A stretch of 61,562 nt of DNA from an uncultured Thermoplasmata archaeon (GCA_964486225.1 CAZAMQ010000002.1:1-61562); one strand, 5' to 3'. Numbered from the stretch's first letter, positions 7,987-27,536 are shown. Notes: generated from the sequence alone by a model not told the origin. Made by a program: numbers and translations.

Positions 7987-9585
7987 ATGAAACCCAAGAT
8001 ATACTCGAATTTAAAAAACAATAAGGTCGGACCCCTTTGGGTTGTAACCTATCTGATAATCGTAGGGGCTATCAGCTTTGCCTTTAGAGCCGGCTTTAAC
8101 TCGAACGTAAGATATTCTTACCTTATACTTACTACCGAAATACTCGTACTCAGCCTGTATTTCTTTATCATCCTCATAATTTACAGAATTTTAGCTAAAA
8201 GAATACCTATCGATTATATTTTACAAAATACCATGTCCTTCTACTGGCTTTTGGCTCTGACACCGCTTATTACAGGTCTATCAGGAGAGGCTGTTAGCAA
8301 CACACGTTTAATCTCTGTATCAAATCTATTATGTATCCAAAACGAAACGGGTATCGTTTTATCGTTCGTGGTCATGATCTCCTTTTTATTTTGTTATCGT
8401 ATTTTCACTTACTATCCTACGGTACGCAACGGCCTAAAATATAGCTCTCTGGCCTTCACAACCTCACTTGTTTTTTCAATACCTACATTATTCATCAGAC
8501 GTGTAGTCATACAAGATAGCAAATTCTTACTTTACGCATTTATACAATCGGATTTACTTTCCAGTGGTGGATTACCATCTATCCAACAGCCTACCGCTCT
8601 TCTGATCAATCAAGGATATCATCTAAACCTCGTATTAATCTTGATCGAAATATCTGTTATCGTATCTGTTCTCCTGTATCTCACTTCAAAAAATTTTTTC
8701 ACCTCGTTGTTCAAGAACCTAAAACCCTTTCGCACACTTCACTTCATCATGTTAGTTATTATAGGAGTTATCGTGGTCAGAAAAGTGAGTCCCGATTACG
8801 TGCTAGATCCCTTGGCATTGAACCATTTTCCATTCGTTTTTATAGCTGTATTTTGCAGTGCTTTTTTCGTATGGCAATTCACATCGCTTCTTAACGACCT
8901 CTATGATGTTACAATAGATAAACTAGCCCATCCGGACAGACCACTGGTTATTGGTCATGGATATGAAAGCGTATACTTCGAACTGTGCATAGCGATCATT
9001 ATCGTCTCATCGTGGTTAACCCTCCTGTTAGGACCTTTGATATTCGCCTTGAACACCATTGCTATTGCTACCGCAGTTATTTACTCCGTTCCTCCCATAA
9101 GGCTAAGGAGCAGAGCATTTGGTCATATCTGCATAGGATTGGGAAGTGTAATAGCCTTACTAGTGGGCGTTTACTCACCTACTCGTTGGGTCTACGGCAT
9201 CGTATTCAATGACCCTTACCACATGAGGAACATACCATTTTATCCTGAGATCCTTCAGATAGCGATTTTACTCTTTATCGTTCTTTCCATCTCACCTCTT
9301 ATCAATGCGATCTCGGACTATGAAGGAGATCTAAGCTCAGGAGTAAAAAATGTTTATACCGTCTATGGTTTCGAAAGAGGGAAGAAGATAGTTTCTATAC
9401 TTATAGTTCTTCTATTCCTATCGCCTTTATTGATGTTTCAGAGCGTACTAGATATTATCCTGCTCACACTGGCAGCAATGATCTCTTCTATCATCTTCTA
9501 TAAAAAAGAGAAGTGGAGGATACTTTTTGGCCTTTATTTCCTCATCCTAATTTACTGCATGTTCAGATTTCTCGAGTTCATCTGA
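7987..9585 (+). CDS. polytopic membrane protein with C-terminal UbiA-family prenyltransferase domain
   Basis: 532 aa, hydrophobic throughout. Asp-rich motifs NDLYDVTIDK..HPDRPL and DYEGD in the C-terminal half. The N-terminal ~290 aa has no recognised motif. Confidence 0.65.
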   Translation: MKPKIYSNLKNNKVGPLWVVTYLIIVGAISFAFRAGFNSNVRYSYLILTTEILVLSLYFFIILIIYRILAKRIPIDYILQNTMSFYWLLALTPLITGLSGEAVSNTRLISVSNLLCIQNETGIVLSFVVMISFLFCYRIFTYYPTVRNGLKYSSLAFTTSLVFSIPTLFIRRVVIQDSKFLLYAFIQSDLLSSGGLPSIQQPTALLINQGYHLNLVLILIEISVIVSVLLYLTSKNFFTSLFKNLKPFRTLHFIMLVIIGVIVVRKVSPDYVLDPLALNHFPFVFIAVFCSAFFVWQFTSLLNDLYDVTIDKLAHPDRPLVIGHGYESVYFELCIAIIIVSSWLTLLLGPLIFALNTIAIATAVIYSVPPIRLRSRAFGHICIGLGSVIALLVGVYSPTRWVYGIVFNDPYHMRNIPFYPEILQIAILLFIVLSISPLINAISDYEGDLSSGVKNVYTVYGFERGKKIVSILIVLLFLSPLLMFQSVLDIILLTLAAMISSIIFYKKEKWRILFGLYFLILIYCMFRFLEFI

Positions 9586-13309: not shown

Positions 13310-13360
13310 ACAGAATTAATAAGACCTTAACTAAAAATACTTTGTGCTGCTAAATTTGGA

Positions 13361-13375
13361 TGCCCGATCCGGGAT
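13361..13375 (-). repeat. 15-nt exact copy of the tRNA-Arg 3' end
   Basis: TGCCCGATCCGGGAT at 13361-13375 equals 13540-13554. Degenerate similarity continues for ~8 nt. Confidence 0.7.
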
Positions 13376-13539
13376 CCATTCGGAATGCCTACTACGTAGT
13401 AATTCCAAAAGCTCGCAAAATCACAAGCGATTTTGCTCGTCGAACAAGTTCTCAGCTCGGAACGAGTTCCAAGCGTTCACAAATCATAGATTTGTTCTCA
13501 TCCCGTCTCGTTCACTTTTCCTCCCATCGGTCGTAAAAG

Positions 13540-13613
13540 TGCCCGATCCGGGATTCGAACCCGGGTAAGAGGCTCCGCAGGCCCCTATGATATCCAGACT
13601 ACACTAATCGGGC
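13540..13613 (-). tRNA. tRNA-Arg (anticodon GCG)
   Basis: 74 nt on the minus strand. Acceptor GCCCGAT/ATCGGGC, anticodon stem GGGGC/GCCTC with loop CTGCGGA, T-arm CCGGG-TTCGAAT-CCCGG. The D-arm pairs imperfectly. Confidence 0.8.
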
Positions 13614-14802: not shown

Positions 14803-15612
14803 ATGATGATTTACTTGGGACCCGGGGGTACACCCCACGGAGTAAAGGGAACAGAGGCGAGCATGGCCTACTTAGCCGAAGAAGGATTGAACGCTATGGA
14901 AGTTCAATTTGTTAGAGGAGCTAGGATGAAGGAATCAACTGCAGAGAGGATCGGTGAGGAGGCCGCTAAAAATGGTATACGCCTGAGCATCCACGCTCCG
15001 TACTATATCAACCTCAACTCCGATAAGGACGACATAATAGCAAAAAGTAAAGAGCGAATAATGAAGAGTGCACGTCTGGGCGATATAATGGGTGCTAAGG
15101 TTATCACAGTACACGCAGGTTATTACGGTGAACTAAGCAGTGAAGACGCCACAGATATTATCGGTAAGAACGTCGTCGAATGTGCTGAGATGATAAAAGA
15201 AGAGTCCTTGAATGTGAAGATAGGCCTGGAACAGATGGGGAGGAAGAAAAGCTGGGGCACCCTGGACGAGATCGCCAAGGTGATGAGAATGACTGAACAC
15301 ATCGTTCCCGTACTGGACTTCGCCCATTACCATGCACGTTATGATGGTATTCTGAAAACGGAAAACGATTTTCACGAGTTGTTGAACAAGTACGAGAAGA
15401 TCCACAAGGGACCACTGCACTCGCACTTTTCCTCCATCGAGTACAACGATACCGGGGAACGCTCACATCTTAACGTTGAAGACAGGGACCCTGATTTCTC
15501 ACTTCTCGCACCCGTGCTAAAGGAAAAAGACTACGATATCACAGTGATATGCGAGACGCCCGAACTGGACCGTGACAGTCTGCGGATGAAGAAGATGCTG
15601 GAGTCCGTCTGA
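14803..15612 (+). CDS. endonuclease IV-like TIM-barrel protein (AP endonuclease family 2)
   Basis: 269 aa. LSIHAPYYINLNS, ITVHAGYY, GLEQMG, DFAHYHA, HSHFS, VICETP metal-ligand-like pattern. Confidence 0.65.
   Translation: MMIYLGPGGTPHGVKGTEASMAYLAEEGLNAMEVQFVRGARMKESTAERIGEEAAKNGIRLSIHAPYYINLNSDKDDIIAKSKERIMKSARLGDIMGAKVITVHAGYYGELSSEDATDIIGKNVVECAEMIKEESLNVKIGLEQMGRKKSWGTLDEIAKVMRMTEHIVPVLDFAHYHARYDGILKTENDFHELLNKYEKIHKGPLHSHFSSIEYNDTGERSHLNVEDRDPDFSLLAPVLKEKDYDITVICETPELDRDSLRMKKMLESV
15518..15602 (+). repeat. 85-bp direct repeat, proximal copy (attL-like), inside the 3' end of the endonuclease IV-like CDS
   Basis: 84/85 identical to 27446-27530. The single difference is GAC versus GAT. 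Confidence 0.95.
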
Positions 15613-15798
15613 TCTAGTTTTCCACCGGTCCGTTCTATCTATATTAGGGAAAGCTGTAATAGAGATATATGTTATTTAATTTACCGGAGTTACGGTTATA
15701 AAATATTGTTCGGACCGAGTTTCATCTTGCTTTTTATTGGGGTTTCGATTCTAGAAGAATTTATGATTTAGTCTTTGGGTGCGTTCGCCACAATAGTA

Positions 15799-15854
15799 TT
15801 ACTTATTAAGGTAATAATACGAGTATACTTACTGTAAAAGGTAAGTTTATATAC
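15799..15854 (+). promoter_or_regulatory. two operator-like 16-bp sites plus TATA box upstream of the AbiEi-like gene
   Basis: TTACTTATTAAGGTAA (15799-15814) and TTACTGTAAAAGGTAA (15829-15844) lie 30 bp apart, each with TTAC/GTAA inverted arms. TTTATATA at 15847-15854 ends 22 nt before ATG 15876. Confidence 0.45.
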
Positions 15855-15875
15855 CTGTATAGAAATATCGTAACG

Positions 15876-16706
15876 ATGACGGATAAAAAAACCATACTTC
15901 AGCAGCTTTTCGGGACCACTACGAAGGTCAAGATACTAGAACACTTGATAATGGAAGGCGATGGCATCTCCAGGTATGCTTTAAGTAAAATGGTCGGAAC
16001 CGGTGTCGGCCCAACATACAACCAGGTGGATCAATTGATCGCTGTCGGGGCCTTGAGAGAATCCGACGATAAGATAGTGTTGGATACCTCATTTCCGTTC
16101 TATGAATCTATCGAGGATCTTGTGGTTTCAACGAATGACTATCTGGACGACCTACGTATCTTGCTCCAACGGTTAGATAGACTATATAGCCCCGATTATT
16201 ATATATCAGGATATCTGGCCGCTTGTCAAAATGGTTTTCCCATGGACCATGAACAGGACACTGTGCTTGTGGCACTTGTGAACCCCGATCACCGATCAAA
16301 AAGGTATGTCAATGCTCTGTCGGAATGTACGTCTACCCACCTGCGATTGTTCCCCGTTGAATGTATAGAACGCGACATCAAAAGGATCGACATATATGGC
16401 TCAGAGATATGGCTTGCCTCCTTCGAGAGAGGGATTGTGGATTGTATCGCATACGATGAAAGCGGGATATATCCTGTTGCCTTGCTTCTTATCCAGAATG
16501 CCATAAAAGGAGATGTACGATGGGACATGTTGCTCCGGATAGCCGAAGAAAGAGGAGTACTGGATATGTTTTCGAAGATCCTCCGTGAGATCAGCCTTAC
16601 CTCCATAGAGATACCCGAAGATATCCTTACGGGACAAAAGGTCGAAAGTGATAACGAGGTAAGAAAAACCGTCATGAATGCTTTAAACACTGTGAGAGGG
16701 GGATGA
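15876..16706 (+). CDS. AbiEi-like antitoxin / wHTH transcriptional regulator
   Basis: 276 aa. N-terminal wHTH (KVKILEHLIMEGDGISRYALSKMVG). C-terminal domain with an ASFERGIVDCI-type motif. The stop overlaps the start of the next gene. Confidence 0.55.
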   Translation: MTDKKTILQQLFGTTTKVKILEHLIMEGDGISRYALSKMVGTGVGPTYNQVDQLIAVGALRESDDKIVLDTSFPFYESIEDLVVSTNDYLDDLRILLQRLDRLYSPDYYISGYLAACQNGFPMDHEQDTVLVALVNPDHRSKRYVNALSECTSTHLRLFPVECIERDIKRIDIYGSEIWLASFERGIVDCIAYDESGIYPVALLLIQNAIKGDVRWDMLLRIAEERGVLDMFSKILREISLTSIEIPEDILTGQKVESDNEVRKTVMNALNTVRGG

Positions 16707-17668
16707 ACATGTGGATACAACTATCTCACTTGGAAAAGATGAAGGTGATGTCGATTGTTGGATCGTGGGAAAGGGAACAGATAACCCAGGAAGTCTTGCG
16801 TAGTATCCAGAAGGATATCGGGATCCCAGCTAGGTATGTTGAAATAATGTTTTGGCATTATGATATATTATCTCTATTTGCAGAGACTGATTGGTTGATA
16901 TTTAAAGGGGGAACCTGCGTTCAGTCCTTTATTCGACCGGGATATCAAAGGGCATCGATGGATCTGGATTTTAATTCTTCTATAGGAAATCCAAACGCCA
17001 TCAAATGTGAGATAAGTATACTCAACAAGATGATGGATAAAAAAGGAGCCCACGTAACAGTTCAAGGGATAGATTTCGGAAAGATCGAATTCATCGAGGA
17101 CGATGTACACAGCGGGACCTTAAATTTTATCAGAAGGATGCCGACTCGATTCGGAGATATGGAAAAGGTAGGGGATGACAGGATACAAGCAAAAAGTATC
17201 AGGATACAGATCAATTACAAGAATGCCTGGCTCCCGGCACTCTCACCCATAGACAAGGTACCGGAATTCTTCATCTTGGATTATCAGAAACCGAAGAAAC
17301 TCATCAACATGACACATTCGAGCAAGGAGGACCTGATCGCGGATAAGGTCCTTGCGACCTGTAATGTCGGTGGTTTCGGGAGAGAGCGTTTCAAGGATAT
17401 CTATGATATAGGGATGTTACTGAAGGATGGTTATGACAAGGAAACAATATCCAAAAAACTCGGATTGGTGGGTAAAAAAGCAAAGATCGAACCCACATCG
17501 CTGATAAAGGGCGCGGTGGAGACCATCTCAGATTTTGCGATAAGAGGCGTAGAAGCCAGAGGTTTTGCTTCCATGGTAGCAAATGCCGGCCAGGATCACG
17601 TCAAAGATTGGGAGAGTTTTTGTTTCCGTATCGCGGACGAATTAAAGGGCTTACGAGGCTACGTTTGA
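16703..17668 (+). CDS. AbiEii/AbiGii-family nucleotidyltransferase (type IV TA toxin-like)
   Basis: 321 aa. FKGGTCVQSF and RASMDLDFNS match the family GG-T and R.S.D.D motifs. 4-nt overlap with the upstream gene. Confidence 0.65.
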   Translation: MNMWIQLSHLEKMKVMSIVGSWEREQITQEVLRSIQKDIGIPARYVEIMFWHYDILSLFAETDWLIFKGGTCVQSFIRPGYQRASMDLDFNSSIGNPNAIKCEISILNKMMDKKGAHVTVQGIDFGKIEFIEDDVHSGTLNFIRRMPTRFGDMEKVGDDRIQAKSIRIQINYKNAWLPALSPIDKVPEFFILDYQKPKKLINMTHSSKEDLIADKVLATCNVGGFGRERFKDIYDIGMLLKDGYDKETISKKLGLVGKKAKIEPTSLIKGAVETISDFAIRGVEARGFASMVANAGQDHVKDWESFCFRIADELKGLRGYV

Positions 17669-17964
17669 CAGTAAGAGATATAAGTTGCTCTTAGCTCTGT
17701 TAGTTTCATGCAAACAAAACTAACATCACTAAGAACAAGAAACATTACGAAAAAAAGAGAATGACTTATTTTTCTCCGATTGACTCATCACAAAGCATGC
17801 ACCATATACCTTGTAAATCGTTATAAAACCGAACAAAGATATATATCTTCAGATAGGAGCGGACTATCAAACTCGGACTGTATCGAATTCGACATTATAT
17901 CAACGTAAAAACTATATAGTTATTCATATTGCCTATATAGTAATGTCACAATATATATATGAGT

Positions 17965-18004
17965 ATGTATGTATGTATGTATGTATGTATGTATGTATGT
18001 ATGT
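17965..18004. repeat. (ATGT)10 tetranucleotide microsatellite
   Basis: Ten perfect ATGT units. The array ends 15 nt upstream of the TATA box of the S8 protease gene. Confidence 0.95.
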
Positions 18005-18114
18005 TTCTATATAGGAAAATTTATATAGTTTTTATTACGTACCCTATCACGAGGTTACGAAAATGAAACAAAAAGCAAAATTGAAGGGAGCAATACTCTG
18101 TGCGATGCTACTCT
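17997..18114 (+). repeat. promoter + 5' coding segment of the S8 protease gene, copy 1 of a ~118-bp duplication
   Basis: Matches 25064-25182. 18020-18114 versus 25088-25182 shows 2 mismatches in 95 bp. Confidence 0.9.
18020..18027 (+). promoter_or_regulatory. TATA box (TTTATATA) of the S8 protease gene
   Basis: Preceded by purine-rich GGAAAA (BRE-like). 35 nt separate it from ATG 18063. GAGGT lies 8 nt before the ATG. Confidence 0.6.
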
Positions 18115-21014
18115 CCGTTACGTTCTTTGGAGGGTTTGTTGTCGCCGAAGGAAACGAAGTGGAATCGAATGTGGCGATGATCGAAGTACGCAGCGGTGCG
18201 GATCAATCTCTGCTGGATGTGTACGATGTTGAGATCATGGAGTGGTACGACAATGCGGTACTCGCCCGTGTCGATAATGATACACTCGATCTGCTGGAAA
18301 TAGCGGGTTTTACGGTAGATACTCTGCCCAAAAGGACGACTATATATGTTAAGGGGTACGAGTTCGACTTCACCGAAGGAGAACCCGATATACCGGCAGC
18401 CCTCAGGGTGAACGACTACGAACCCGGAGAGAAGGGGCTGTATATCGTCCATATGATCGGACCGATAGCAGCTGGTTGGCGGCCGACCCTTGAAGAGATG
18501 GGTGTGCAGGTATTGAACTACATGCACAATCATGCATACCGTGTGAGGATGACCCCGGAACTCGCAAACGAGGTATCCGAGCTGTACTTTGTGGACTGGA
18601 TCGGAATATACCATCCGTACTACAAGATACAGCCGGGGCTGGAGGCTGGAATTGTCGAAGTCATGCTTTTGGCCGAATCGAGTGAGGATAGTGTTACCAC
18701 TGTTTTTGAAACGGCGGATATTCTTTCCTTTGCTGAGTTCGCTACCGGAGAATACTACTTTAGGGCACACGTTATTTCGAGAGATAAATTACATCAACTG
18801 GCAAATATAAATGATGTGAGTTTCTTAACGCGATATACCGAACCTGAACTTTTTGATGAAATCGCAACCCAATTGATCGGAGGCGGTTGTTGGTTCTTCG
18901 ATGATGAGGATGACGACCCATCCACACCATATAGAAAACATGGTGATTATGGTTCCTACATGAACCAGATCGGTTACGAAGGCGAAGGCATCATAATAGC
19001 AATCGCCGATACTGGTATCGGTGCGAGAGCACATGACCCACCCCATGATGATTTCCAGGAACGAATAATAGGTAGGTACTCTTACGATAGTACGTTGGGA
19101 GATTTTGACGGTCATGGAACACATTGTGCAGGATCTGCAGCAGGCAATACATATGAAGGTACCGAAGAAACTATTCAACATGGTTACTATGCCGGCCAGG
19201 GTTCAGCACCCGCAGCAGAACTATATGATATAAAGGTATTCACCAGGACTAGTGAGCATGGAGACTTAATATATATCGGTCCTGACCCTTATATCTATGA
19301 TATACTCCTGAAAGGAAGTCAAGGTGGTGCAGCCGTTCATTCTAATTCATGGCGTATTGGAGACGGACAAGGTACCTACGGAACTTATTCATCCCAATAT
19401 GATAAGGGGGTCAGAGATTTCGATATGGTGGTAACGGTAGCTGCAGGTAACAGTGGTTCGAATCACCAGACAATAACTCAACCCGCAACAGGAAAGAACG
19501 TTATAACCGTTGGTGCAACATTGAACTCTGCGAGTTCATCTGCTGAATACATATGGAGTTCTAGCTCCCGTGGTTGGACTCAGGACAACCGTATCAAGCC
19601 TGATGTGATGGCACCTGGTGTGAGTGTTACTTCAACTTGGATTGATTGGGAATGGGATGAGGGTTTTGAAGTACCGATATCTTATGAATATGGCTATTCA
19701 ACCAAGAGTGGTACTTCAATGGCAACACCTGCCGTGGCAGGGGCGGCAGCGGTCACGATGGAATGGTACGAGGTGAACCACGGAAGTAATCCGAGCCCAG
19801 CGATGGTGAAGGCACTTCTCATCAACACAGCAAACGACCTGTGCAACGAAAACGGCAACACCGGTCCCATCCCCAACCGTGACGAAGGCTGGGGCATAGT
19901 TGATATCTCGAAGTTGGAACGACCATTGGAAGATCCCGTGCCCTTTTATCTGTATGACCAGGAACATGTATTCGATGAAAGTGGACAAATACACGAACAC
20001 CTGATAATACCCGATAGGGAAGGAGTACCACTGAAGTTCAGCCTTGTATGGACGGATAAAGAGGCCGGAAATGTAGGTGATGATCCGACGTTGATGAACG
20101 ACCTGAATCTAGAAGTCATCGCACCTTGTGGCGCGGTATACCGCGGTAATGCGTTCAATATGACCGGTGAAGGAAGTGTGAGTGACACAGGTTACACCTT
20201 CCCCGATGTGGATACCATGACAGACTTCGACAGGAATGAAGACGGTTGGGACGATACCAACAACGTTGAGAATGTGTACATACCTGCCGAAGACGTAGTG
20301 ATCGGTAATTATACTGTACGGATAAGGGCAAAATCGATAACCGAAGACTCCGTCGGTCTTGGCCTTACTAATAGCCAGGACTATGCGTTGGCGGTTTATA
20401 ATGCGGAATTGGGTAATGTGTTCCCAACGGTATTCAATATGCGGGGACACCAACACATGGTGAACTATCTCGAAGCTTACAAATTAACCAACCCTTCGTC
20501 GTATGAACTCAATCTGGAAAGCTCGACCATTCAGTATTCGACAGATTATGTTCAAGGAGAAGAATATACTGTACTCTGGGGCATCAGGGTTTTCATAAGA
20601 GATGTAAACGGTGATGAAACGCAGTTGGATCCTTTCTACGGCCCTAAGGCGATTGTCAGTAGAAATAGCGTAGGAGAAGGTTATCAGAATGCACTTTTCT
20701 CCTATTATATGGGAGATATACCCGTCGAAGATGATGACGCGATCGTAGTGAGAGTATATTCCAAGATCGAAGGACCTCAAGGTGGGACATTATGGACAGA
20801 GCAGGCTTCCTTTATAACCGATAAATTAGAGGAACACCTTAACGGAAGTACATATATCTATCAACCAAACTGGAACATCACTTATTACACACGGTATGAT
20901 CAGGGAATATCATTAGGATTCCCAGCGCAAAGACATGTAACGGGAACCTTCTATTGGGGTAATATGGATAAGAATTCACGAGTGGAAGGCATCCTTTTTA
21001 CTCAAATAACTTAA
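18063..21014 (+). CDS. secreted subtilisin-like (S8) serine protease with long N- and C-terminal extensions
   Basis: 983 aa. Signal peptide. Catalytic triad motifs AIADTGIG (D), DGHGTHCAG (H), SGTSMATP (S), and AAGNSG. Confidence 0.9.
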   Translation: MKQKAKLKGAILCAMLLSVTFFGGFVVAEGNEVESNVAMIEVRSGADQSLLDVYDVEIMEWYDNAVLARVDNDTLDLLEIAGFTVDTLPKRTTIYVKGYEFDFTEGEPDIPAALRVNDYEPGEKGLYIVHMIGPIAAGWRPTLEEMGVQVLNYMHNHAYRVRMTPELANEVSELYFVDWIGIYHPYYKIQPGLEAGIVEVMLLAESSEDSVTTVFETADILSFAEFATGEYYFRAHVISRDKLHQLANINDVSFLTRYTEPELFDEIATQLIGGGCWFFDDEDDDPSTPYRKHGDYGSYMNQIGYEGEGIIIAIADTGIGARAHDPPHDDFQERIIGRYSYDSTLGDFDGHGTHCAGSAAGNTYEGTEETIQHGYYAGQGSAPAAELYDIKVFTRTSEHGDLIYIGPDPYIYDILLKGSQGGAAVHSNSWRIGDGQGTYGTYSSQYDKGVRDFDMVVTVAAGNSGSNHQTITQPATGKNVITVGATLNSASSSAEYIWSSSSRGWTQDNRIKPDVMAPGVSVTSTWIDWEWDEGFEVPISYEYGYSTKSGTSMATPAVAGAAAVTMEWYEVNHGSNPSPAMVKALLINTANDLCNENGNTGPIPNRDEGWGIVDISKLERPLEDPVPFYLYDQEHVFDESGQIHEHLIIPDREGVPLKFSLVWTDKEAGNVGDDPTLMNDLNLEVIAPCGAVYRGNAFNMTGEGSVSDTGYTFPDVDTMTDFDRNEDGWDDTNNVENVYIPAEDVVIGNYTVRIRAKSITEDSVGLGLTNSQDYALAVYNAELGNVFPTVFNMRGHQHMVNYLEAYKLTNPSSYELNLESSTIQYSTDYVQGEEYTVLWGIRVFIRDVNGDETQLDPFYGPKAIVSRNSVGEGYQNALFSYYMGDIPVEDDDAIVVRVYSKIEGPQGGTLWTEQASFITDKLEEHLNGSTYIYQPNWNITYYTRYDQGISLGFPAQRHVTGTFYWGNMDKNSRVEGILFTQIT

Positions 21015-21095
21015 CGGAGGTATTATTCAAAGGCGAAAAACTTGAAGGACAACGAAGATTGTACGTGGAAAGCGAACACAAAAACCTGTTCGAAC

Positions 21096-21120
21096 GAGGG
21101 GCCGCCGCCCTAGGCCCCTC
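21096..21120 (+). terminator. GC-rich hairpin followed by a T-rich tract
   Basis: GAGGGGCC-N9-GGCCCCTC, then TCTTATTTCC. 80 nt after the S8 stop codon. Confidence 0.5.
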
Positions 21121-21176
21121 TCTTATTTCCCATCTACAGATAAATTATATAAAGTAGCGATAGGATATATGATAAC

Positions 21177-24100
21177 ATGGAGACACGGAGAAGAGGAAGG
21201 AGAGTAATCTATCTTATGACATGCATCGCTTTATGCGTGATACTCGTTTTCTCCGGTTTGAACTTTGCTGTATCGTCAGGTACGGAAAATATTGATGACC
21301 TTTTGGAAAAGAACGAATCCGTGGTTACGGATGAGTACGAAACAGAACCCTATGAAGAACCATACATGTTAGAGTTTAGTTCAATAGATGTAGCCACATC
21401 TTTCGCCAGAGGAAGCGGAACACTGGAAGACCCGTATATGATTTACAACGTTCATGATTTGCAGAACATGAGTGGCGATTTAAGTGCACACTATGCACTG
21501 GCTAATGATATAGAAGCAAGTGAGACCAGGGAGTGGAACTGGAACGGGACTGGATACGAGGGATTCGTGCCTATCGGTGATTCAGACTATACATTCACAG
21601 GCACCTTCGACGGGCGTAACCAAACCATAATTGGGTTGTACATAAACAGATCGTACATTTATTTTGCCTATGTGAGTCTATTTGGATTTGTTGATGATGG
21701 CAGTGAAGTACGCAATGTAGGTATGGTTGATGTGGATATTAATGGACACTCAAATAGGTACGTAGGCGGACTCGTAGGAGAGAACAGAGGTAATGTTTAC
21801 AACTCCTATGCAACCGGTGATGTGATAGGGTATTGGGGCATAGGCGGGCTTGTAGGCCGGAATTTTGGAAAAATTGCGAATTCTTATGCCAGTGGAGAAG
21901 TAAGAGGAAACATCGCAGTTGGCGGATTGGTTGGACATAATTGGGGTGGCACGGCGGAGAACTCATATGCATCGGTCAACGTTACAATAAGGAAATCGTT
22001 AGGATATATCAATTCAAATATGGGCGGGCTCGTGGGATTGAACAATGGTGCGGTGTCCAACTCCTATTCCGAAGGTAATGTTTATGCAGGTGAATCAAGT
22101 GATGGACTTCCCCATACTTCTGTAGGGGGGTTGGTGGGAAGTAACGGGGGTGCGGTGTCTAACTCGTATTATAACATCGACACCGTTCTTATAAATAACG
22201 CTCATCATGTAACCCTTGGAGGTTTATATAACGAACAATACAATGATTGGATCGCTAACGACCTATATCTTGATATATCGGATTATAGTGACACATTGGT
22301 CCCTACTGGTGATAGTTACGTGATCAGCGAGATCCAGGGATTTAAGGACCTCCTTGGTTTTTCTGGAGATGGATACACCTTCATACTTGGTTCGAACATA
22401 GATTTATCATCGTCCCCTGGTCATTACATACCTTCTTTCAAGGGTATATTTGATGGTAACAATCATACCATCTCTCACTTGAACATAAATCAACCTTTTT
22501 CTCAAAATGTAGGTTTGTTCGGCTACCTTTTTACTGGTAGCCAGGTGGTGAATGTTGGATTGGTTGACATCAACGTGACCGGGTACTGGATAGTAGGCGG
22601 GCTAGTAGGGTTTAACTACTTTGGCGCAATAGATAATTCATACACCATAGGTGAAGTTAATGGGTACAGTAATATAGGGGGGCTGGTGGGATTAAACCGA
22701 GACGGTTCTGTTTACAACTCCTATACTACAGGTAAAATTGGTTCGATAGAAGTGAATTATGCAGGTTTTGAACCTCGTTATGCAGGGGGACTGGTTGGAT
22801 ATAACCGGGATGGTACTATATCCACATCGCATTCTTCGTGTGATATTAATGTCCTTGGATATTTTATCAGCGGAGGACTAGTCGGATACAATCGAGGAGG
22901 ACTTATTACTGATTCATATACTACAGGAAATGTTAGCGGAGGAGATGTGGTTGGCGGGATAGTCGGCGAGAACATTGGCACGGTGTCGAACACGTATGCA
23001 ACGGGAACCGTGAGCGGGGGCTCATATGTAGGCGGGCTCATGGGATGGAACTGGGGCACGGTGTCTAACTCGTATTCAACGGGAGCCGTGAGCGGGGGCT
23101 CATATGTAGGCGGGCTCGTGGGACGGAACGAAGGCGGCACGGTTAGCTACTCGTATGCAACGGGAACCGTGTGCAGTGAGTGGGGGGAGGTAGGCGGGCT
23201 CGTGGGTGTGAACTCAGGTAGGGTGTACAGCTCGTATGCTACCGGAAACGTAAGCGGAAACTTTGGAGTCGGTGGGCTCGTGGGATTCATGGGCGGCAGT
23301 AACAGTTTGATCGCAAATTCTTATTCTACTTGTAATGTAAGAGGTAAGGGTCTGGCGGGTGGATTGATTGGTTCCAACGGCATTGATGGTGATATGCCTA
23401 TTCCGGGTGGCACTGTGACAGATTCATATTCAAAAGGTGATATAACACGAATAATGGATTCGTCAAATTCGAGATTAGGTGGATTCTTGGGATTTAACTA
23501 TAGGGGAAAGATAATCAACTGCTATTCCACCGGGAGTGTTCAATACGAGGATGCTTCCGATCCAACAGACAAGGGCTTCGCCGGCCCAGTTGATACTGGC
23601 GGCGACTATGAGATGACCGGTAATTTCTGGGATGTTGAAACCAGCGGACAGATCAGCACGGCCGGCAACGCCACAGGTAAAACCACCGCGGAGATGATGG
23701 ATATCGATACCTACGCTAACGCCGGCTGGAACATTGTGTCAGTCGATGATGCAAATGATCGGAATATGTTTTACCTCTGGAACATCGTTGATTATGAGAC
23801 ATACCCATTCCTCAGCTGGGAAGGGTTCACCTTGAAAATATTTACATCGGGTAACGGTACAGTGGATATCGAACCCCAACGTCACACTTATCCTTATGGT
23901 ATGGAAGTTATAGTAACAGCCTTGTCCGATGTTGGATGGTACTTCAGCCACTGGACCGGAGATGTGCCCGATGGGCAGGAAGCGGACGAAGAGATCACAA
24001 TCGTCATGGATGGGGGCAAAACTCTAACCGCTCACTTCGCACAAATATATCATGACCTTAATCTAACCCTAGAAGGTGAGGGTACTACCGTGCCTGAGGA

Positions 24101-24998
24101 AGGTAATCACTCTTATCTATACGGTTCTGATGTGAATATAACAGCGATACCAGATGAGGGTTGGTACTTCAGTCACTGGTCCGGTGATGTACCCGGTGGC
24201 CAGGAAACGAACGAAAACATCACTATCGTGATGGACAGCGATAAAAACATCACCGCACACTTCGAACAGATATATCACAACCTTACTGTCTCCATCATCG
24301 GCGAAGGTACCACCGATCCTCCGACAGGCAATCACACTTACACCTACGGCACGTCGGTGAACATAACAGCAACATCCGCCGCCGGCTGGCGGTTCAGCCA
24401 CTGGACCGGTGATGTACCCGAAGGAAACGAAACGAACGAGAATATCACCGTCCTGATGGACCGTGACATCAACATCACCGCGCACTTCCAGGAACTTCTG
24501 TTTATACCCGAGAATCTCTCGCTCACTGTAACACCCTTGGAGGGCGAGACACCCCTGGAAGTGACCATCACCGTAGGTGCTAATAACTCCGGACTGCTGG
24601 AAGGCTCTATCGATGTGGTCGTGGACGACGAGGTGGTTTACACACTCGTCATACCTGCGGAGGGCACTGCTGAGCATACCTTTGATCATACATTCGAGAG
24701 TGCGGGTACCTTCGAGATAGTCTTCGGTGAGCTGTCGAAAAATGTGGTGGTGCGTGAGGTAGAGGAAGAGGTAGAGCCAGAGGATGCGGGTTTCCCACTA
24801 TGGGGTCTACTACTCATCGCTGCCGTCGTGATCGCTCTAGCCGCCGTGCTCTTCATGATGAAGAGGAAACCAAGAGAGGAGGAGGCGATACAGGATGAAG
24901 AAGAGTCGAGTCCGGATGAGGAAGAAATGTTAACTGAACAAGACGAGGAGCAGTCCTCTCAGGAAGACGAACCTCTGTCGGAAGATGTGGATTATTAG
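21177..24998 (+). CDS. GLUG-repeat surface protein with three InlB-B-repeat-like modules and a C-terminal TM anchor
   Basis: 1273 aa. N-terminal TM/signal. Many (V/I)GGLVG.N.G.(V/I).NSY(A/S)TG repeats. Three ~76-aa repeats with GW(Y/R)FSHW(T/S)GDVP. Anchor LLLIAAVVIALAAVLFMMKRKPREEE and an acidic tail. Confidence 0.8.
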   Translation: METRRRGRRVIYLMTCIALCVILVFSGLNFAVSSGTENIDDLLEKNESVVTDEYETEPYEEPYMLEFSSIDVATSFARGSGTLEDPYMIYNVHDLQNMSGDLSAHYALANDIEASETREWNWNGTGYEGFVPIGDSDYTFTGTFDGRNQTIIGLYINRSYIYFAYVSLFGFVDDGSEVRNVGMVDVDINGHSNRYVGGLVGENRGNVYNSYATGDVIGYWGIGGLVGRNFGKIANSYASGEVRGNIAVGGLVGHNWGGTAENSYASVNVTIRKSLGYINSNMGGLVGLNNGAVSNSYSEGNVYAGESSDGLPHTSVGGLVGSNGGAVSNSYYNIDTVLINNAHHVTLGGLYNEQYNDWIANDLYLDISDYSDTLVPTGDSYVISEIQGFKDLLGFSGDGYTFILGSNIDLSSSPGHYIPSFKGIFDGNNHTISHLNINQPFSQNVGLFGYLFTGSQVVNVGLVDINVTGYWIVGGLVGFNYFGAIDNSYTIGEVNGYSNIGGLVGLNRDGSVYNSYTTGKIGSIEVNYAGFEPRYAGGLVGYNRDGTISTSHSSCDINVLGYFISGGLVGYNRGGLITDSYTTGNVSGGDVVGGIVGENIGTVSNTYATGTVSGGSYVGGLMGWNWGTVSNSYSTGAVSGGSYVGGLVGRNEGGTVSYSYATGTVCSEWGEVGGLVGVNSGRVYSSYATGNVSGNFGVGGLVGFMGGSNSLIANSYSTCNVRGKGLAGGLIGSNGIDGDMPIPGGTVTDSYSKGDITRIMDSSNSRLGGFLGFNYRGKIINCYSTGSVQYEDASDPTDKGFAGPVDTGGDYEMTGNFWDVETSGQISTAGNATGKTTAEMMDIDTYANAGWNIVSVDDANDRNMFYLWNIVDYETYPFLSWEGFTLKIFTSGNGTVDIEPQRHTYPYGMEVIVTALSDVGWYFSHWTGDVPDGQEADEEITIVMDGGKTLTAHFAQIYHDLNLTLEGEGTTVPEEGNHSYLYGSDVNITAIPDEGWYFSHWSGDVPGGQETNENITIVMDSDKNITAHFEQIYHNLTVSIIGEGTTDPPTGNHTYTYGTSVNITATSAAGWRFSHWTGDVPEGNETNENITVLMDRDINITAHFQELLFIPENLSLTVTPLEGETPLEVTITVGANNSGLLEGSIDVVVDDEVVYTLVIPAEGTAEHTFDHTFESAGTFEIVFGELSKNVVVREVEEEVEPEDAGFPLWGLLLIAAVVIALAAVLFMMKRKPREEEAIQDEEESSPDEEEMLTEQDEEQSSQEDEPLSEDVDY

Positions 24999-25063
24999 AT
25001 ACGGGTGCTGATATCCCTACTATAATAACTTCTTGATTCGGTCACCCTTGATGGTGATCTGGA

Positions 25064-25182
25064 ATGTATGTATACTATGGAGGAATTTTTATATAGTTTT
25101 TATTTCGTACCCTATCACGGGGTTACGAAAATGAAACAAAAAGCAAAATTGAAGGGAGCAATACTCTGTGCGATGCTACTCT
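25064..25182 (+). repeat. copy 2 of the S8 promoter/5' coding duplication
   Basis: Contains (ATGT)2, TATA TTTATATA at 25088-25095, and ATG 25131 followed by the first 17 codons of the S8 gene. Confidence 0.9.
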
Positions 25183-25289
25183 GGCTCTCCTCTCTCTTCA
25201 CTTTTTTCGACCATATCATATTAAGAAAATCACGAATAATTATATATATGTGCACGTCCGTATGTAATAAAAAGGAGGCAAACCGATGA
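25131..25289 (+). pseudogene. remnant of the S8 protease 5' end acting as a 52-codon upstream ORF
   Basis: Encodes MKQKAKLKGAILCAMLL (identical to the S8 N-terminus), then unrelated sequence. Its TGA overlaps ATG 25286 of the next gene (ATGA). Confidence 0.6.
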
Positions 25290-27268
25290 AAAAAAGGAGG
25301 TCGGATAGAAAGAAAGTGCCCGTGTCAATAAGATACGGCTCTATTGACCAAATACATAGGATATATACCGTATTGCTCATCCTCTCTCTTTTTGTATCGA
25401 CGATGATTTCCGGCCTTGCCGTAGGCATGTATACGCAAAACACTTCATTACAGGAATATGAAAATACATCGGGATCAACGCACATTTCTTCAAACCATCC
25501 GTTCGCTAGGGGCAGCGGTACACTGGAAGACCCGTATATGATCTACAATGTGCATGACCTCCAGAATATGAGCAAAGACCTGAGTGCGCATTATGCACTG
25601 GCTAATGATATAGATGCCAGCGAGACGAGTGGGTGGAATGATGGTGCGGGGTTCGAACCAATTGGTGACTTGGATAATAGGTTCACCGGTAGCCTCGACG
25701 GACTTAACCATATCATATCTGGGTTACACATCAACAGGGGGCGTATCAACGGTGTTGGTCTTTTTGGTGGTGTTGGTTCTGGCGGTGCAATTAGCAACGT
25801 GGCTGTTGTTGATGCAAGTGTAAACGGGAATAGAAACGTAGGGGGGCTCGTGGGACGGAACAGGGGCAAGGTTGAGAACTCGCATGTAACGGGGAACGTG
25901 AACGGAAATGAGCGTGTAGGCGGGCTTGTGGGATGGAACAGGGGCACGGTTGAGAACTCGCATGTAACGGGGAACATGAACGGAAATGAGCGTGTAGGCG
26001 GGCTTGTGGGATGGAACGATGGTACGGTATCCAACTGTTATACCAACGGCAGCGTGACCGGGGACGGTTCCGTTGGTGGCCTCATCGGATACATTTCTTA
26101 TCCTACGATCCCTTTCATGCCCTCTCCTTCTCCTTCTCCGGAATCTGTAGTGTTCAACTCCCATTACAACATAGACACCGTACTGATCAACGGTGGGCAT
26201 CATGTTACAATCGGTGGTCTATTCGATGAACAATACAATGATTGGTTCTCTAATGGCCTGACACTTGAGATTACAGATTATAGTGATACGCTCGTTCCTT
26301 CAAATGGGTACTATGAGATAGACCGTATGCGTGGTTTACGTGACCTTCTCGGTTTTACGTATGTCGAAGAATATAATTTTCGCCTAGGTGCGGACATAGA
26401 CCTTTCCACTGTTTCAGGTCTGTACATACCATATATCACCACAGTGTTTGATGGAAACAACCACACCATATCCAACTTGCACATAGAAATGCCATTTTCC
26501 TCTAACATAGCCATGTTCGGATACATATACGGAGGGTCAATTAGCAACATTGGGCTTAAAGATGTGAATATAACTGGTGAAAATGCTGTAGGCGGACTTG
26601 TTGGGTACAACATCAAGGGCACGGTTGAGAACTCGTTTGCAACGGGGAACGTGAGCGGAAACGATTATTTAGGTGGGCTCGTGGGATACAACCTGATTAG
26701 CACTATGAACAACACGTATTCAACTGGAAGCGTGAGCGGTGGTGGGTATATCGGAGGGCTCTTAGGTGTTAACTGTATTAGCACACTGTCAAACTCGTAT
26801 TCAACTGGAAGCGTGAGCGGAAATGAGCATGTAGGCGAGTTCGTGGGAAGAAATTATGGCGGCACTGTGTCCAACTCCTTCTGGGACAACGAAACAAGCA
26901 GTCAAAGCACCAGTGCTAGCGGGGAGGGGAAAACCACCACTGAGATGAAGGATATAAACACATATCTTAACGCTGGCTGGGACATCGTTGCGGTATCTAA
27001 TCCTGATGACAGTAACCCCGATTATACATGGAATATTGTGGACGGAGAGAGCTATCCCTTCCTGAGCTGGGAACATGAACCTAGTTCGGGATCACCATGG
27101 CGGATCCTACTGCTCATCGCCGCTATCGTGATCGCACTGGCAGCCGTGCTCTTCATGATGAAGAGGAAACCAAGAGAGGAGGAGGCACAAGACGAGGAAC
27201 CGTCCACTCAGGACGACGAACCACTTATGGAAGAACTTAACTTACCAGACCTCTTGGACGGATACTGA
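25286..27268 (+). CDS. GLUG-repeat surface protein (shorter paralogue) with C-terminal TM anchor
   Basis: 660 aa. GGAGG lies 8 nt before the ATG. Shares the N-terminal module FARGSGTLEDPYMIYNVHDLQNMS and the anchor LLLIAAIVIALAAVLFMMKRKPREEE with the 1273-aa protein. Confidence 0.8.
   Translation: MKKRRSDRKKVPVSIRYGSIDQIHRIYTVLLILSLFVSTMISGLAVGMYTQNTSLQEYENTSGSTHISSNHPFARGSGTLEDPYMIYNVHDLQNMSKDLSAHYALANDIDASETSGWNDGAGFEPIGDLDNRFTGSLDGLNHIISGLHINRGRINGVGLFGGVGSGGAISNVAVVDASVNGNRNVGGLVGRNRGKVENSHVTGNVNGNERVGGLVGWNRGTVENSHVTGNMNGNERVGGLVGWNDGTVSNCYTNGSVTGDGSVGGLIGYISYPTIPFMPSPSPSPESVVFNSHYNIDTVLINGGHHVTIGGLFDEQYNDWFSNGLTLEITDYSDTLVPSNGYYEIDRMRGLRDLLGFTYVEEYNFRLGADIDLSTVSGLYIPYITTVFDGNNHTISNLHIEMPFSSNIAMFGYIYGGSISNIGLKDVNITGENAVGGLVGYNIKGTVENSFATGNVSGNDYLGGLVGYNLISTMNNTYSTGSVSGGGYIGGLLGVNCISTLSNSYSTGSVSGNEHVGEFVGRNYGGTVSNSFWDNETSSQSTSASGEGKTTTEMKDINTYLNAGWDIVAVSNPDDSNPDYTWNIVDGESYPFLSWEHEPSSGSPWRILLLIAAIVIALAAVLFMMKRKPREEEAQDEEPSTQDDEPLMEELNLPDLLDGY
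25870..26025 (+). repeat. near-perfect 78-bp (26-codon) tandem duplication inside the GLUG gene
   Basis: GGTTGAGAACTCGCATGTAACGGGGAAC(G/A)TGAACGGAAATGAGCGTGTAGGCGGGCTTGTGGGATGGAAC occurs twice in tandem. Confidence 0.85.
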
Positions 27269-27401
27269 CAGCGACCAAACGATTCTCTTATTTCCCAAAC
27301 TCTTCCGGTTTGAAGATCAACAGCGTGAGCGTTCCGTCCGAATTCCATGATATAGTCGAGAACCGAACGTGTATGACTTATTATCTGTTTTTTGACTATA
27401 T

Positions 27402-27443
27402 GTGGCACACGAATTTGTAGGTCCTGACGCGTACGTGTGCCAC
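27402..27443. repeat. 10-bp perfect inverted repeat (GTGGCACACG / CGTGTGCCAC) with a 22-nt spacer
   Basis: 27402-27411 and 27434-27443. It ends 2 nt before the distal 85-bp repeat. Confidence 0.85.
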
Positions 27444-27445
27444 TA

Positions 27446-27530
27446 TAAAGGAAAAAGATTACGATATCACAGTGATATGCGAGACGCCCGAACTGGACCG
27501 TGACAGTCTGCGGATGAAGAAGATGCTGGA
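27446..27530 (+). repeat. 85-bp direct repeat, distal copy (attR-like): orphan 3' fragment of the endonuclease IV-like gene
   Basis: 84/85 identical to 15518-15602. Continues in frame to LDAV-TAA at 27540. An upstream in-frame TAG at 27418-27420 shows that only the 3' fragment is present. Confidence 0.95.
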
Positions 27531-27536
27531 TGCGGT

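Follow-up and report, generated by a model that had tools for sequence, protein, structure and literature searches.

A Repeat-Bounded Island of Surface and Defence Genes Between an Endonuclease IV-like Gene and rad50 in an Uncultured Thermoplasmata Archaeon

Introduction

In an uncultured archaeon of the Thermoplasmata, an endonuclease IV-like gene is separated from a convergent rad50-mre11-herA-nurA cluster by an 11.8-kb block of DNA, at both borders of which the same 85 bp of a protein-gene 3' end are found. This arrangement raises the question of how the block came to lie there and whether it brought along its own means of moving. The locus is part of a metagenome contig of 61,562 bp (GCA_964486225.1 CAZAMQ010000002.1:1-61562), which was analysed over its full length and is referred to as the window. 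An earlier note on this DNA had described an insertion of ~11.9 kb, had read the two repeat copies as attL and attR, i.e., as the signature of site-specific integration into a gene 3' end, and had put the pattern forward as undescribed; a lack of compositional contrast and the origin of the distal repeat from a larger decayed paralogue had been named there as findings incompatible with this reading.

Two Ends of One Gene

The features of the locus are compiled in Table 1. The product of the endonuclease IV-like gene at the left border matches the Pfam families AP_endonuc_2 (E 9.6e-30) and UvdE (8.6e-07) and is 89% identical to its orthologue at the related locus L001. The last 95 nt of this gene consist of the proximal copy of an 85-nt direct repeat, named R, and a replacement tail; R recurs at the right border at a spacing of 11,928 nt (99% identity in a repeat search). 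The anatomy given in the earlier note was reproduced in every detail, including the agreement of the two copies at 84 of 85 positions, with a single synonymous difference (located here to repeat position 14, GAC versus GAT, both Asp), the endings LESV and LDAV, the in-frame TAG upstream of the distal copy, and the overlap of the TAA of the 95-bp distal orphan with the rad50 stop within TTTAAA. The junctions read GTGTGCCACTA where the cargo end enters distal R, GTCCGTCTGATC after proximal R and TGCGGTTTAAATCG after distal R. A repeat with 84 of 85 matching positions cannot have arisen by chance within 61 kb, and coding conservation alone does not explain it either, because the nearest relative differs from R at 9-10 of the 85 positions.

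Table 1. Features of the island and its borders (positions counted from the first nucleotide of the window).
Feature	Position	Strand	Evidence
Endonuclease IV-like gene (xylose-isomerase-like TIM barrel), target gene	14803..15612	+	intact 269-aa ORF
Proximal R copy, coding for (L)KEKDYDITVICETPELDRDSLRMKKML	15518..15602	+	repeat family D16
Proximal tail GTCCGTCTGA, closing the gene as ...LESV-TGA	15603..15612	+	sequence alignment
AT-rich spacer (GC 0.33) between gene end and toxin-antitoxin pair	15613..15875	.	six-frame: no protein-family match
AbiEi-like partner, 276-aa winged-helix DNA-binding protein	15876..16706	+	PADLOC AbiEi 3.7e-4 (residues 159-236), weak
AbiEii-family nucleotidyltransferase toxin, 321 aa	16703..17668	+	Pfam PF08843 2.2e-15; PADLOC AbiEii 2.8e-09
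(TATG)n microsatellite in spacer upstream of S8 gene	17952..18011	.	repeat family D12
Secreted S8 (subtilase) serine protease, 983 aa	18063..21014	+	Pfam PF00082 1.1e-41
First GLUG surface protein, 1273 aa	21177..24998	+	Pfam Glug 3e-59, Flg_new_2 7.5e-41
Copy of S8 TATA box, leader and first 17 codons, upstream of second GLUG gene	25088..25182	+	98% to 18020-18114, family D13
Second GLUG surface protein, 660 aa	25286..27268	+	Pfam Glug 1.7e-25
Spacer at right end of insert	27269..27445	.	no endonuclease-gene homology, no protein-family match
Distal R copy, orphan 3' fragment	27446..27530	+	repeat family D16; in-frame TAG upstream at 27418
Distal tail TGCGGTTTAA, ending ...LDAV-TAA (stop at 27538-27540)	27531..27540	+	sequence
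rad50, first gene of convergent rad50-mre11-herA-nurA cluster (right flank)	27537..29957	-	ORF and family match; 88% identical to L001

The earlier suggestion that the distal fragment is the original gene end was supported, because the 11-nt run CGGTTTAAATC (27533-27543), which extends 3 nt beyond the stop codon, is identical in L001 at the same offset after the repeat, and because of the stop overlap with rad50; the tail-to-tail junction with rad50 is also kept there. In an alignment with the native gene end of L001, the distal tail plus 3 nt scored 22, compared to a shuffle mean of 13.4 (sd 2.1). The proximal tail, which mismatches the distal tail at 5 of 10 positions, the tails of L002 and L003 at 2 of 10, and that of L001 at 4 of 10, presumably arrived together with the inserted DNA.

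Both R copies carry all 8-9 substitutions that separate the lineage of the window from L001, and they differ from one another at 1 of 85 positions, while the tails, although still homologous, are mismatched at 5 out of 10 (Fisher p = 2.5e-5). R is, therefore, resident DNA that is present twice, with the sequence type switching exactly at its right end. Over its last 19 nt, R is the same in the window as in L001 and L002, and this stretch offers a natural crossover place between diverged alleles. Resident-type repeat copies followed by divergent tails are explained by a doubling of resident DNA no less readily than by an attP x attB exchange.

Contents of the Island

Five cargo ORFs are enclosed between the R copies, and the toxin-antitoxin pair, S8 protease and two GLUG proteins recognized earlier were all recovered, by Pfam matches and, for the AbiEi-like partner, by weak PADLOC matches. 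The AbiEii match to PF08843 reaches 57.7 bits (cut-off, 22.5), and the closest relatives of this toxin are at most 59% identical. Its start codon region is overlapped over 4 nt (16703-16706) by the stop of the AbiEi-like gene, whose 276-aa product has relatives matching MarR/HTH families and a family profile matching winged-helix (wHTH) regulators in the PDB. A single-sequence AlphaFold model of this protein (pLDDT 40) was unusable, and the profile searches gave a wHTH only. The two-gene module is also found in relatives, where it adjoins S8 or beta-helix surface genes and is not accompanied by integrases.

Aside from the toxin and its partner, the cargo consists of exported proteins with signal peptides. 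The closest relatives of the S8 protease (67% and 61% identical) are encoded in related Thermoplasmata at other genomic locations; the region 19710-21321, which spans the junction between the S8 gene (3' part) and the first GLUG gene (start), is 77% identical at the nucleotide level to L082 (HAP24), at a different locus. The 1273-aa protein comprises GLUG repeats, three InlB-type B-repeat domains, a C-terminal transmembrane anchor and an acidic tail, and the second GLUG protein is its paralogue at the N-terminal domain and the C-terminal anchor (repeats D11, D15, D17-D19). These paralogous gene ends, together with the truncated S8 5'-end copy, show that recombination has taken place inside the island; the S8 copy is a scar of an internal duplication and deletion. 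Judged from the relationships of its genes, the cargo is typical of the local Thermoplasmata gene pool. No RNA genes were found in the island by Rfam; a scan for bacterial-type promoters and terminators, which is uninformative for an archaeon, returned counts equal to the shuffle expectation.

Mobility Genes and Composition

Neither a recombinase nor a transposase nor a replication gene was detected in the five cargo ORFs, in the six-frame translated spacers or in antisense ORFs (Pfam, NCBIfam, PADLOC), and no gene of these kinds is present within the 15-kb flanks (20 flanking genes). The absence of such genes noted earlier, thus, holds for ORFs, spacers and flanks alike, and the six-frame search for recombinase remnants that had been advised was negative for the island spacers. 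Hallmark genes of conjugation or virions and Cas1 were equally missing from the ORFs and six-frame translated spacers of the island, no relatives were present in IMG/VR, and a repeat search revealed no terminal inverted repeats at the borders. Except for the S8 promoter copy, no spacer sequence recurs elsewhere in the window.

The tetranucleotide distance of the island (0.0126) lies mid-range among those of equal-sized windows (0.0073-0.0184), and its GC content (0.455) lies between those of the two flanks (0.435 and 0.486). The long AT-rich spacers reported before are real, with GC values of 0.30-0.45. GC3 values of the cargo genes (0.45-0.51) are slightly below those of the immediate neighbours (0.54-0.59) but not outside the values found for other genes of the window. 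Compositional foreignness was, hence, rejected on the basis of tetranucleotides and GC; the earlier note itself had declared the absence of a contrast to be evidence against its reading.

The Junction in Related Genomes

The endonuclease gene and rad50 face each other tail to tail, ~10-40 bp apart and with no gene between them, in 22 species-representative Thermoplasmata relatives and in 16 JGI soda-lake contigs, all of the same order. This supports the view, taken already in the earlier note, that the 11.8-kb block was inserted into an ancestral layout of this kind. The order of a radical-SAM gene, the endonuclease gene and rad50-mre11-herA is conserved across the archaeal order, and both flanks of the window are collinear with L001 at a uniform nucleotide identity of 80-95% up to the junctions. 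The search for an empty site was, thus, successful at the genus level and above, but only there, because the collections searched contain no conspecific genome (an exact-protein look-up was empty, and the proteins of the window are singletons).

Where most relatives hold nothing at this junction, the window holds 11.8 kb; occupants in other clades are a 296-aa membrane gene in L001 and L002 (an insert of ~1 kb in L001) and a 237-aa gene in L020 and L033, in all cases without repeats. L001 and L002 share a 2267-bp block across the junction at 86% identity, with neighbouring genes being at most 68% identical, which points to a recombinational allele exchange at this place. A tRNA-Arg 3'-end scar is situated 2 kb away.

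The endonuclease gene end is present once at each of about 60 loci of relatives; neither an additional nor an orphan copy was encountered at the 30 closest loci, in 17 JGI contigs or in the viral contigs of IMG/VR, and an exact-pattern scan of R gave no match in JGI metagenomes or IMG/VR. Together with the resident type of both R copies, this speaks against the attL/attR interpretation. An arrangement that could have served as donor, i.e., the cassette downstream of an endonuclease allele, was not found in these data either. The genomic contexts of endonuclease relatives with ~80% identity (P0003, P0005, P0006) were uninformative, displaying another synteny with a T2SS-type ATPase gene downstream. 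An apparent homology of the spacer following proximal R to the sequence that follows the gene in L001 and L002 was set aside as a 13-nt TATA-like run at another distance, scoring at the top of the shuffle range.

Possible Origins of the Island

The explanation that we prefer, to which we would give slightly less than an even chance, is a one-off insertion, by host recombination, of a variable surface/defence cassette that was anchored on a conserved gene end. On our best reading, the island is a lineage-specific island of the variable genome and not a self-mobile element. We infer the following scenario as to what the donor was, in which order the steps took place and by which exact route the DNA recombined. 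Starting from an endonuclease IV-like gene that converged directly on rad50 with overlapping stops, DNA from a Thermoplasmata relative that carried a comparable cassette downstream of a diverged allele of the endonuclease gene would have been joined by the host's own recombination. At the left junction, the two alleles would have undergone homologous crossover within the conserved final ~19 nt, leaving the resident gene with donor codons at its end (ESV-stop), and the right end of the incoming DNA would have been joined 85 bp upstream of that crossover. A fragment that had closed into a circle could have integrated by a single crossover (a natural "pop-in"), or chromosome copies could have engaged in a one-sided-homology or unequal exchange; by either route, 85 bp of resident sequence would be duplicated and the original gene end orphaned against rad50. 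Later remodelling in place may have involved a tandem duplication of the S8-GLUG unit, followed by a deletion.

Several points count against such a one-off event. Placing the right junction upstream of the left crossover demands that the incoming DNA was circular or that two copies of the chromosome took part. A repeated gene 3' end with a stop supplied by the element is exactly the trace of tyrosine-recombinase integration in archaea (PMC6563490); an integrase gene could have been lost in the rearrangements of the island, and an attP copy that differed at first could have been made uniform by gene conversion between the repeats. The cassette was not encountered downstream of an endonuclease allele, the empty site is seen at the genus level and above, and toxin-antitoxin pairs are common on mobile elements.

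A serious, though less likely, rival is that the island is the remnant of an integrase-mediated element. Here, an attP site corresponding to the last ~95 nt of the endonuclease gene would have recombined with attB, yielding attL (proximal) and attR (distal), and the integrase would have been lost or would act in trans. Repeats bracketing the whole block, a target gene rebuilt with a new stop, a persisting original end and an empty site in relatives are all accounted for in this way, and the same anatomy is known from 14 of 68 thaumarchaeal integrated elements that occupy 3'-distal regions of protein genes (PMC6563490). The AbiE pair adjoining attL, the deletions suffered by the island and the tRNA-Arg scar, indicating that integrative elements visit this lineage, are also in line with it. 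However, no island frame and no gene within 15 kb encodes an integrase or a fragment thereof, replication, conjugation and virion genes are lacking, and the composition is that of the surroundings. The site is not reused, with ~60 loci of relatives and 17 JGI contigs being single-copy and IMG/VR being empty, and R, at 85 bp, is longer than crenarchaeal att sites, for which lengths of 29-69 bp are cited (PMC6563490). Moreover, resident-type R copies next to a tail with ~50% divergence would call for an attP recently copied from the same lineage or for subsequent gene conversion. Regardless of its cause, the repeat/new-stop pattern is not undescribed, contrary to the earlier claim, because archaeal integration into protein-gene 3' ends with an element-supplied stop has already been published (PMC6563490).

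We consider it improbable that the island is a recombinase-less but mobilisable cassette that moves from one Thermoplasmata chromosome to another and uses a short copy of the conserved gene end as a "homology handle", with pop-in and pop-out by host recombination and stabilisation by AbiE, or that is moved in trans by an integrase encoded elsewhere.

Slightly less credit still is given to an assembly artefact, by which two molecules sharing R (an empty-site chromosome and a circular or other R-bearing DNA, or two strains) would have been threaded into one path. The proteins of the window, which comprises an entire metagenome contig, were seen on no other contig; furthermore, R (71 bp of it exact after the mismatch) is longer than common k-mer sizes and, therefore, an assembler could resolve a figure-of-eight graph as the integrated form. 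Yet the junctions from cargo end to R (27445/27446) and from R to the proximal tail must both exist in reads, so that DNA with R beside the cargo is real in any case. The R copies, owing to their one-base difference, were assembled as distinct sequences, and reads of 150 nt span 85 bp. The chromosome-like composition of the cargo together with the lack of a replication gene makes a free replicon unlikely.

The case for a mobile cassette with an unrecognised recombination function in its own genes or non-coding spacers is built on negative evidence, namely a block that is precisely repeat-bounded in the absence of a known recombinase and a 276-aa protein that had no Pfam or NCBIfam family before the present analysis, and we deem it very improbable. 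This protein is of the wHTH type and in relatives always paired with AbiEii, as expected of an antitoxin or repressor; of the remaining four proteins, one is a nucleotidyltransferase toxin and the rest are exported. Matchless, unrepeated spacers (apart from the S8 promoter copy), the lack of terminal inverted repeats and the lack of a second instance anywhere searched add to this.

Finally, an in-situ segmental duplication, which would make the distal fragment the last bit of a decayed second endonuclease copy with the cargo being ancestral at this place, might draw on the other internal duplications in the island, but it is equally improbable and we take it as refuted, given that upstream of 27446 no homology to the endonuclease gene remains (local alignment score 17, shuffle mean 17.8; 13 of 60 positions identical without gaps), that a paralogue so old that the rest of it has vanished could not differ at just 1 of 85 positions, and that relatives have no cargo at the same place.

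Significance

If the preferred reading of a one-off, host-mediated insertion is right, the window documents a natural archaeal gain of a 12-kb surface/defence cassette for which a few tens of homologous bases at one end sufficed, and this in the immediate neighbourhood of the cell's own recombination genes. The resulting 85-bp duplication can be mistaken for an attachment site, which calls for caution in pipelines that treat any gene-3'-end repeat as attL/attR. The locus also contributes a small data point on the turnover of the variable genome in uncultured haloalkaliphilic (soda-lake) Thermoplasmata. The one-off reading needs no new mechanism and opens no long-standing question; wider interest is limited to the minority reading of a cassette that moves repeatedly without a recombinase of its own.

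Comparison with Known Systems

Transposons and casposons differ from the island by their terminal inverted repeats and their transposase or Cas1, and the 85-bp duplication is far longer than known target-site duplications. In SSV-type integrase "gene capture", split integrase halves are found at the borders, whereas the borders of the island are made up of endonuclease sequence and spacers without protein match. With AbiE type IV toxin-antitoxin systems, the predicted pair shares the AbiEii nucleotidyltransferase domain and an overlapping upstream wHTH gene with a weak AbiEi C-terminal match; it differs in that the antitoxin-like protein belongs to a small, divergent, mostly archaeal family below Pfam/NCBIfam thresholds.

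Integration by tyrosine recombinases in archaea leaves a direct repeat of the gene 3' end and an element-supplied stop (PMC6563490). The integrated elements described there resemble the island in that gene-3'-end repeats flank the block, the insert supplies a stop, the original stop is retained in the distal repeat, and an empty site exists in related genomes (for the island, at the genus level and above). They are set apart from it by their integrase, their plasmid or virus hallmarks, a shorter repeat and reuse of the site, as well as by the host-like composition of the island and the resident type of both its repeat copies.

Recombination-driven duplications (merodiploids) bridged by incoming DNA have been described by Johnston et al. 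2013 (PMC3784515). As in these transformation-induced duplications and in Campbell-type single-crossover "pop-in" events, the insert in the window is flanked by a direct duplication of short homology, in a manner attributable to host machinery with no site-specific enzyme. The known cases are laboratory or bacterial ones with longer homologies or repeats; the event in the window would be natural and archaeal, would have involved at most 85 bp, and is deduced from one sequence.

Variable islands of exposed surface genes that are swapped by homologous recombination in flanking core genes are known from the work of Lopez-Perez et al. 2014 (PMC4033161). Classical replacement islands do not duplicate a flanking gene, whereas the window has a homologous junction at one flank and 85 bp duplicated. 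In common with these flexible islands, the block in the window lies between syntenic core genes, carries exported or surface proteins and a defence module, differs in content among lineages and shows no compositional contrast, and the same junction appears to have undergone a recombinational allele transfer in a relative.

Genomic Setting of the Island

The window is an entire metagenome contig of 61,562 bp from a haloalkaliphilic representative of the Thermoplasmata; MAG HAP25 (locus L001, JAFDTZ010000001) is its best relative. Both sides of the island are collinear with this genome at ~87% nucleotide identity, which stays uniform (80–95%) right up to the island junctions. The left flank comprises acetyl-CoA synthetase, prolyl isomerases, tRNA-Arg and a radical-SAM gene, and the right flank rad50-mre11-herA-nurA followed by aromatic amino-acid genes; no recombinase is found among these flanking housekeeping genes.

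The 3' end of the tRNA-Arg(GCG) gene has a partial second copy (TGCCCGATCCGGGAT) ~170 bp downstream of the gene (13359–13378, 13539–13613), and L001 contains a 31-bp exact copy (8586–8616) ~110 bp from its tRNA; this resembles an att scar left by an old integration at the tRNA, the cargo having since been lost. A third tRNA of 105 nt (7719–7823, minus strand; Rfam, 44 bits), absent from the ARAGORN output, probably contains an intron. The lowest-GC kilobase of the contig (5001–6000, GC 0.34) shows a strong purine skew, and the low-GC stretch includes a 342-aa ORF without a Pfam family (4808–5836). The tetranucleotide deviation of the window's first 12 kb is greater than that of the island.

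Features of the island and its junctions
Feature	Position	Strand	Remark
Endonuclease-IV-like gene	14803–15612	+	intact 269-aa ORF, contains proximal repeat copy
Proximal repeat copy	15518–15602		
276-aa protein	15876–16706	+	4-nt overlap with AbiEii gene
AbiEii toxin	16703–17668	+	family search
S8 protease	18063–21014	+	family search
GLUG-repeat protein 1	21177–24998	+	family search
GLUG-repeat protein 2	25286–27268	+	family search
Distal repeat copy	27446–27530		
rad50	27537–29957	convergent	stop TTA overlaps TAA of distal copy (27538–27540)

The Repeat Pair and the Ancestral Layout

A repeat search of the window recovered the 85-nt direct repeat (99% identity, copies 11,928 nt apart) exactly where the earlier note had placed it, with a single synonymous difference at position 14 (GAC vs GAT, both Asp). 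The 269-aa ORF, a xylose-isomerase-like TIM-barrel or endonuclease-IV-like protein (Pfam AP_endonuc_2, 9.6e-30; nfo and UvdE weakly matched), terminates in LESV-TGA, while the distal copy reads on to LDAV-TAA. These endings, the overlap with the rad50 stop, and an in-frame TAG at 27418, upstream of the distal copy, were all found as described in that note. Repeat positions 19–33 (15536–15550, 27464–27478) form a perfect 7+1+7 palindrome, ATATCAC-A-GTGATAT, which codes for DITVI and reads as imperfect in L001–L003; it is possibly due to chance.

Within the order, 22 species-representative genomes have the endonuclease gene tail to tail with rad50, ~10–40 bp apart, and so do 16 of 16 informative JGI soda-lake contigs, which were retrieved by searching with a degenerate form of the repeat and some of which share populations with the genomes. 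Since the two genes meet directly in these relatives, an empty site is seen at genus level and above, and the island is an insertion relative to the ancestral layout. The distal fragment retains this arrangement with rad50 and, after the repeat, has the 11-nt run CGGTTTAAATC in common with the native gene end of L001, at the same offset; both support the proposal of the earlier note that this fragment represents the original gene end. Upstream of 27446, no homology to the endonuclease gene is detectable (local score 17 vs a shuffle mean of 17.8; 13 of 60 positions identical without gaps). Because nothing resembling that gene precedes the fragment, its assignment to a larger decayed paralogue, which the earlier note had considered as a sign of segmental duplication, was rejected.

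Cargo Genes

All five enclosed genes are on the plus strand. The 276-aa AbiEii partner is the sole cargo protein without an assigned family, its own family being small, with 29 clusters at 50% identity. Proteins of this family match MarR/HTH families, the family profile matches wHTH regulators in the PDB, the C-terminal part of the protein shows a weak AbiEi match, and the homologues in relatives are always upstream of an AbiEii gene; on this evidence, the protein appears to act as an antitoxin or repressor and not as a recombinase.

The cargo belongs to the local gene pool. The closest S8 proteases (67% and 61% identical) occur in related Thermoplasmata, and HAP24 has, at an unrelated genomic place, a stretch with 77% nucleotide identity to 19710–21321 that runs from the 3' part of its S8 gene through the intergenic region into the beginning of the large surface gene that follows. 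In two other relatives, an AbiEi-like/AbiEii pair (55–59% identical) adjoins S8 or beta-helix surface genes, without integrases.

The S8 TATA box, leader and first 17 codons (18020–18114) recur as a 95-nt copy (25088–25182, 98% identical) in a truncated 73-aa ORF (25068–25289). Because this copy now lies isolated ahead of the second GLUG gene and the two GLUG genes are paralogous at both ends, the sequence implies that the island was remodelled, an S8-GLUG unit having been tandemly duplicated and then subjected to deletion. Directly upstream of the S8 promoter lies a (TATG)n microsatellite of ~15 units (17952–18011), at which phase variation or slippage could occur; a short (TATG)n remnant near 25061–25075 precedes the promoter copy. 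The two GLUG proteins share a C-terminal module, made up of a hydrophobic anchor (LLLIAA.VIALAAVLFMMKRKPREEE) and an acidic tail of 25–40 aa, with 86% nucleotide identity across the anchor (24807–24998 vs 27107–27268).

Mobility and Sequence Types at the Junction

Evidence on the status of the island as a mobile element is mostly negative. Neither the five ORFs, nor six-frame translations of the five spacers, nor the longer antisense ORFs contain integrase, transposase, replication, conjugation or virion genes, confirming the reported lack of a recombinase. Measured against the remainder of the contig, the island has a tetranucleotide distance of 0.0126, in the middle of the range covered by all windows of its size (0.0073–0.0184), and its GC of 0.455 falls between the values of the two flanks; hence, there is no compositional contrast in these measures, an outcome the earlier note had listed as a refutation. 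The site is not reused: no second copy of the gene end occurs in the 30 closest loci, each of the 17 JGI contigs contains it once, as part of a full-length gene, and neither the gene end nor the AbiEii toxin was found in IMG/VR. Of the postulated attL/attR-type element, the repeats and the orphan original end stand, while integrase, contrast and site reuse are missing.

The endonuclease gene/rad50 junction is a soft spot. In L001 and L002, a 296-aa membrane-protein gene lies between the two genes without repeats, and in two loci of another clade, L020 (4944–5657) and L033 (436–1152), a third kind of occupant is present, likewise without repeats; this 237-aa protein may have a metallo-beta-lactamase fold, based on its HxHxDH-like motif. 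The membrane-gene loci L001 and L002 were also compared with each other. These two MAGs share, at 86% identity, a 2267-bp block (L001 10004–12270 vs L002 10001–12267) that comprises the endonuclease gene, the 296-aa membrane gene and 450 nt from the 3' end of rad50; outside it, mre11 is ~68% identical and upstream regions are unalignable, which indicates recombinational allele transfer between genera across the junction.

Both repeat copies share all 8–9 substitutions separating the window's lineage from L001; over the 85 positions, they differ from L001 at 9–10, from L002 at 11–12 and from L003 at 15–16, and from each other at one. The adjoining 10-nt tails are still homologous, each coding for x-x-Val-stop in register, but half of their positions (5 of 10) are different (Fisher p = 2.5e-5). 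The proximal tail differs at 2/10 from the L002/L003 type and at 4/10 from L001, the distal tail at 2/10 from L001. The simplest account of these patterns is resident DNA present twice, with the sequence type changing where the repeat ends on the right. There, the window, L001 and L002 agree in all of the final 19 nt, and such an end, conserved between alleles, is the expected place of a homologous crossover with a diverged allele.

Origin of the Island

As the most likely origin, we tentatively favour a one-off insertion for which the host's own recombination was responsible. Homology at the conserved endonuclease gene end would have provided the anchor for the incoming DNA, its other end being joined 85 bp upstream, either through single-crossover integration of a circularised fragment or because two chromosome copies underwent unequal or one-sided-homology exchange; the outcome would be a natural “pop-in” structure.

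The main rival, a decayed or trans-mobilised integrase-dependent element, is a serious and somewhat less probable alternative. Its anatomy is known in archaea, including 3'-distal protein-gene integration with an element-supplied stop (PMC6563490), and, as shown by the tRNA-Arg scar 2 kb to the left, the lineage is visited by such elements. However, attP × attB or Campbell-type exchange with a diverged element copy predicts a donor-type distal repeat, which is not seen here; exchange with an element-borne copy holds only if that copy came recently from the same lineage or the repeats were later gene-converted. A cassette without a recombinase, moving repeatedly through a homology handle or an unlinked integrase, is improbable, and an assembly artefact slightly more so, given that the junctions putting cargo beside the repeat must exist in real DNA regardless. 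A novel recombination function encoded by the cargo and an in-situ paralogue are both poorly supported or refuted and very improbable.

We class the island as variable and lineage-specific, the gene-end duplication on its flanks being a probable product of recombination. Its practical value lies in a caution: a repeated gene 3' end alone does not make an attachment site. For insertion by host recombination, precedents exist in variable surface-gene islands exchanged via homologous recombination (PMC4033161) and in duplications created by incoming DNA that forms a bridge between two copies of the chromosome (PMC3784515). The pattern, put forward as undescribed, is already known, its cargo is ordinary for the group, and a new mechanism is not required.
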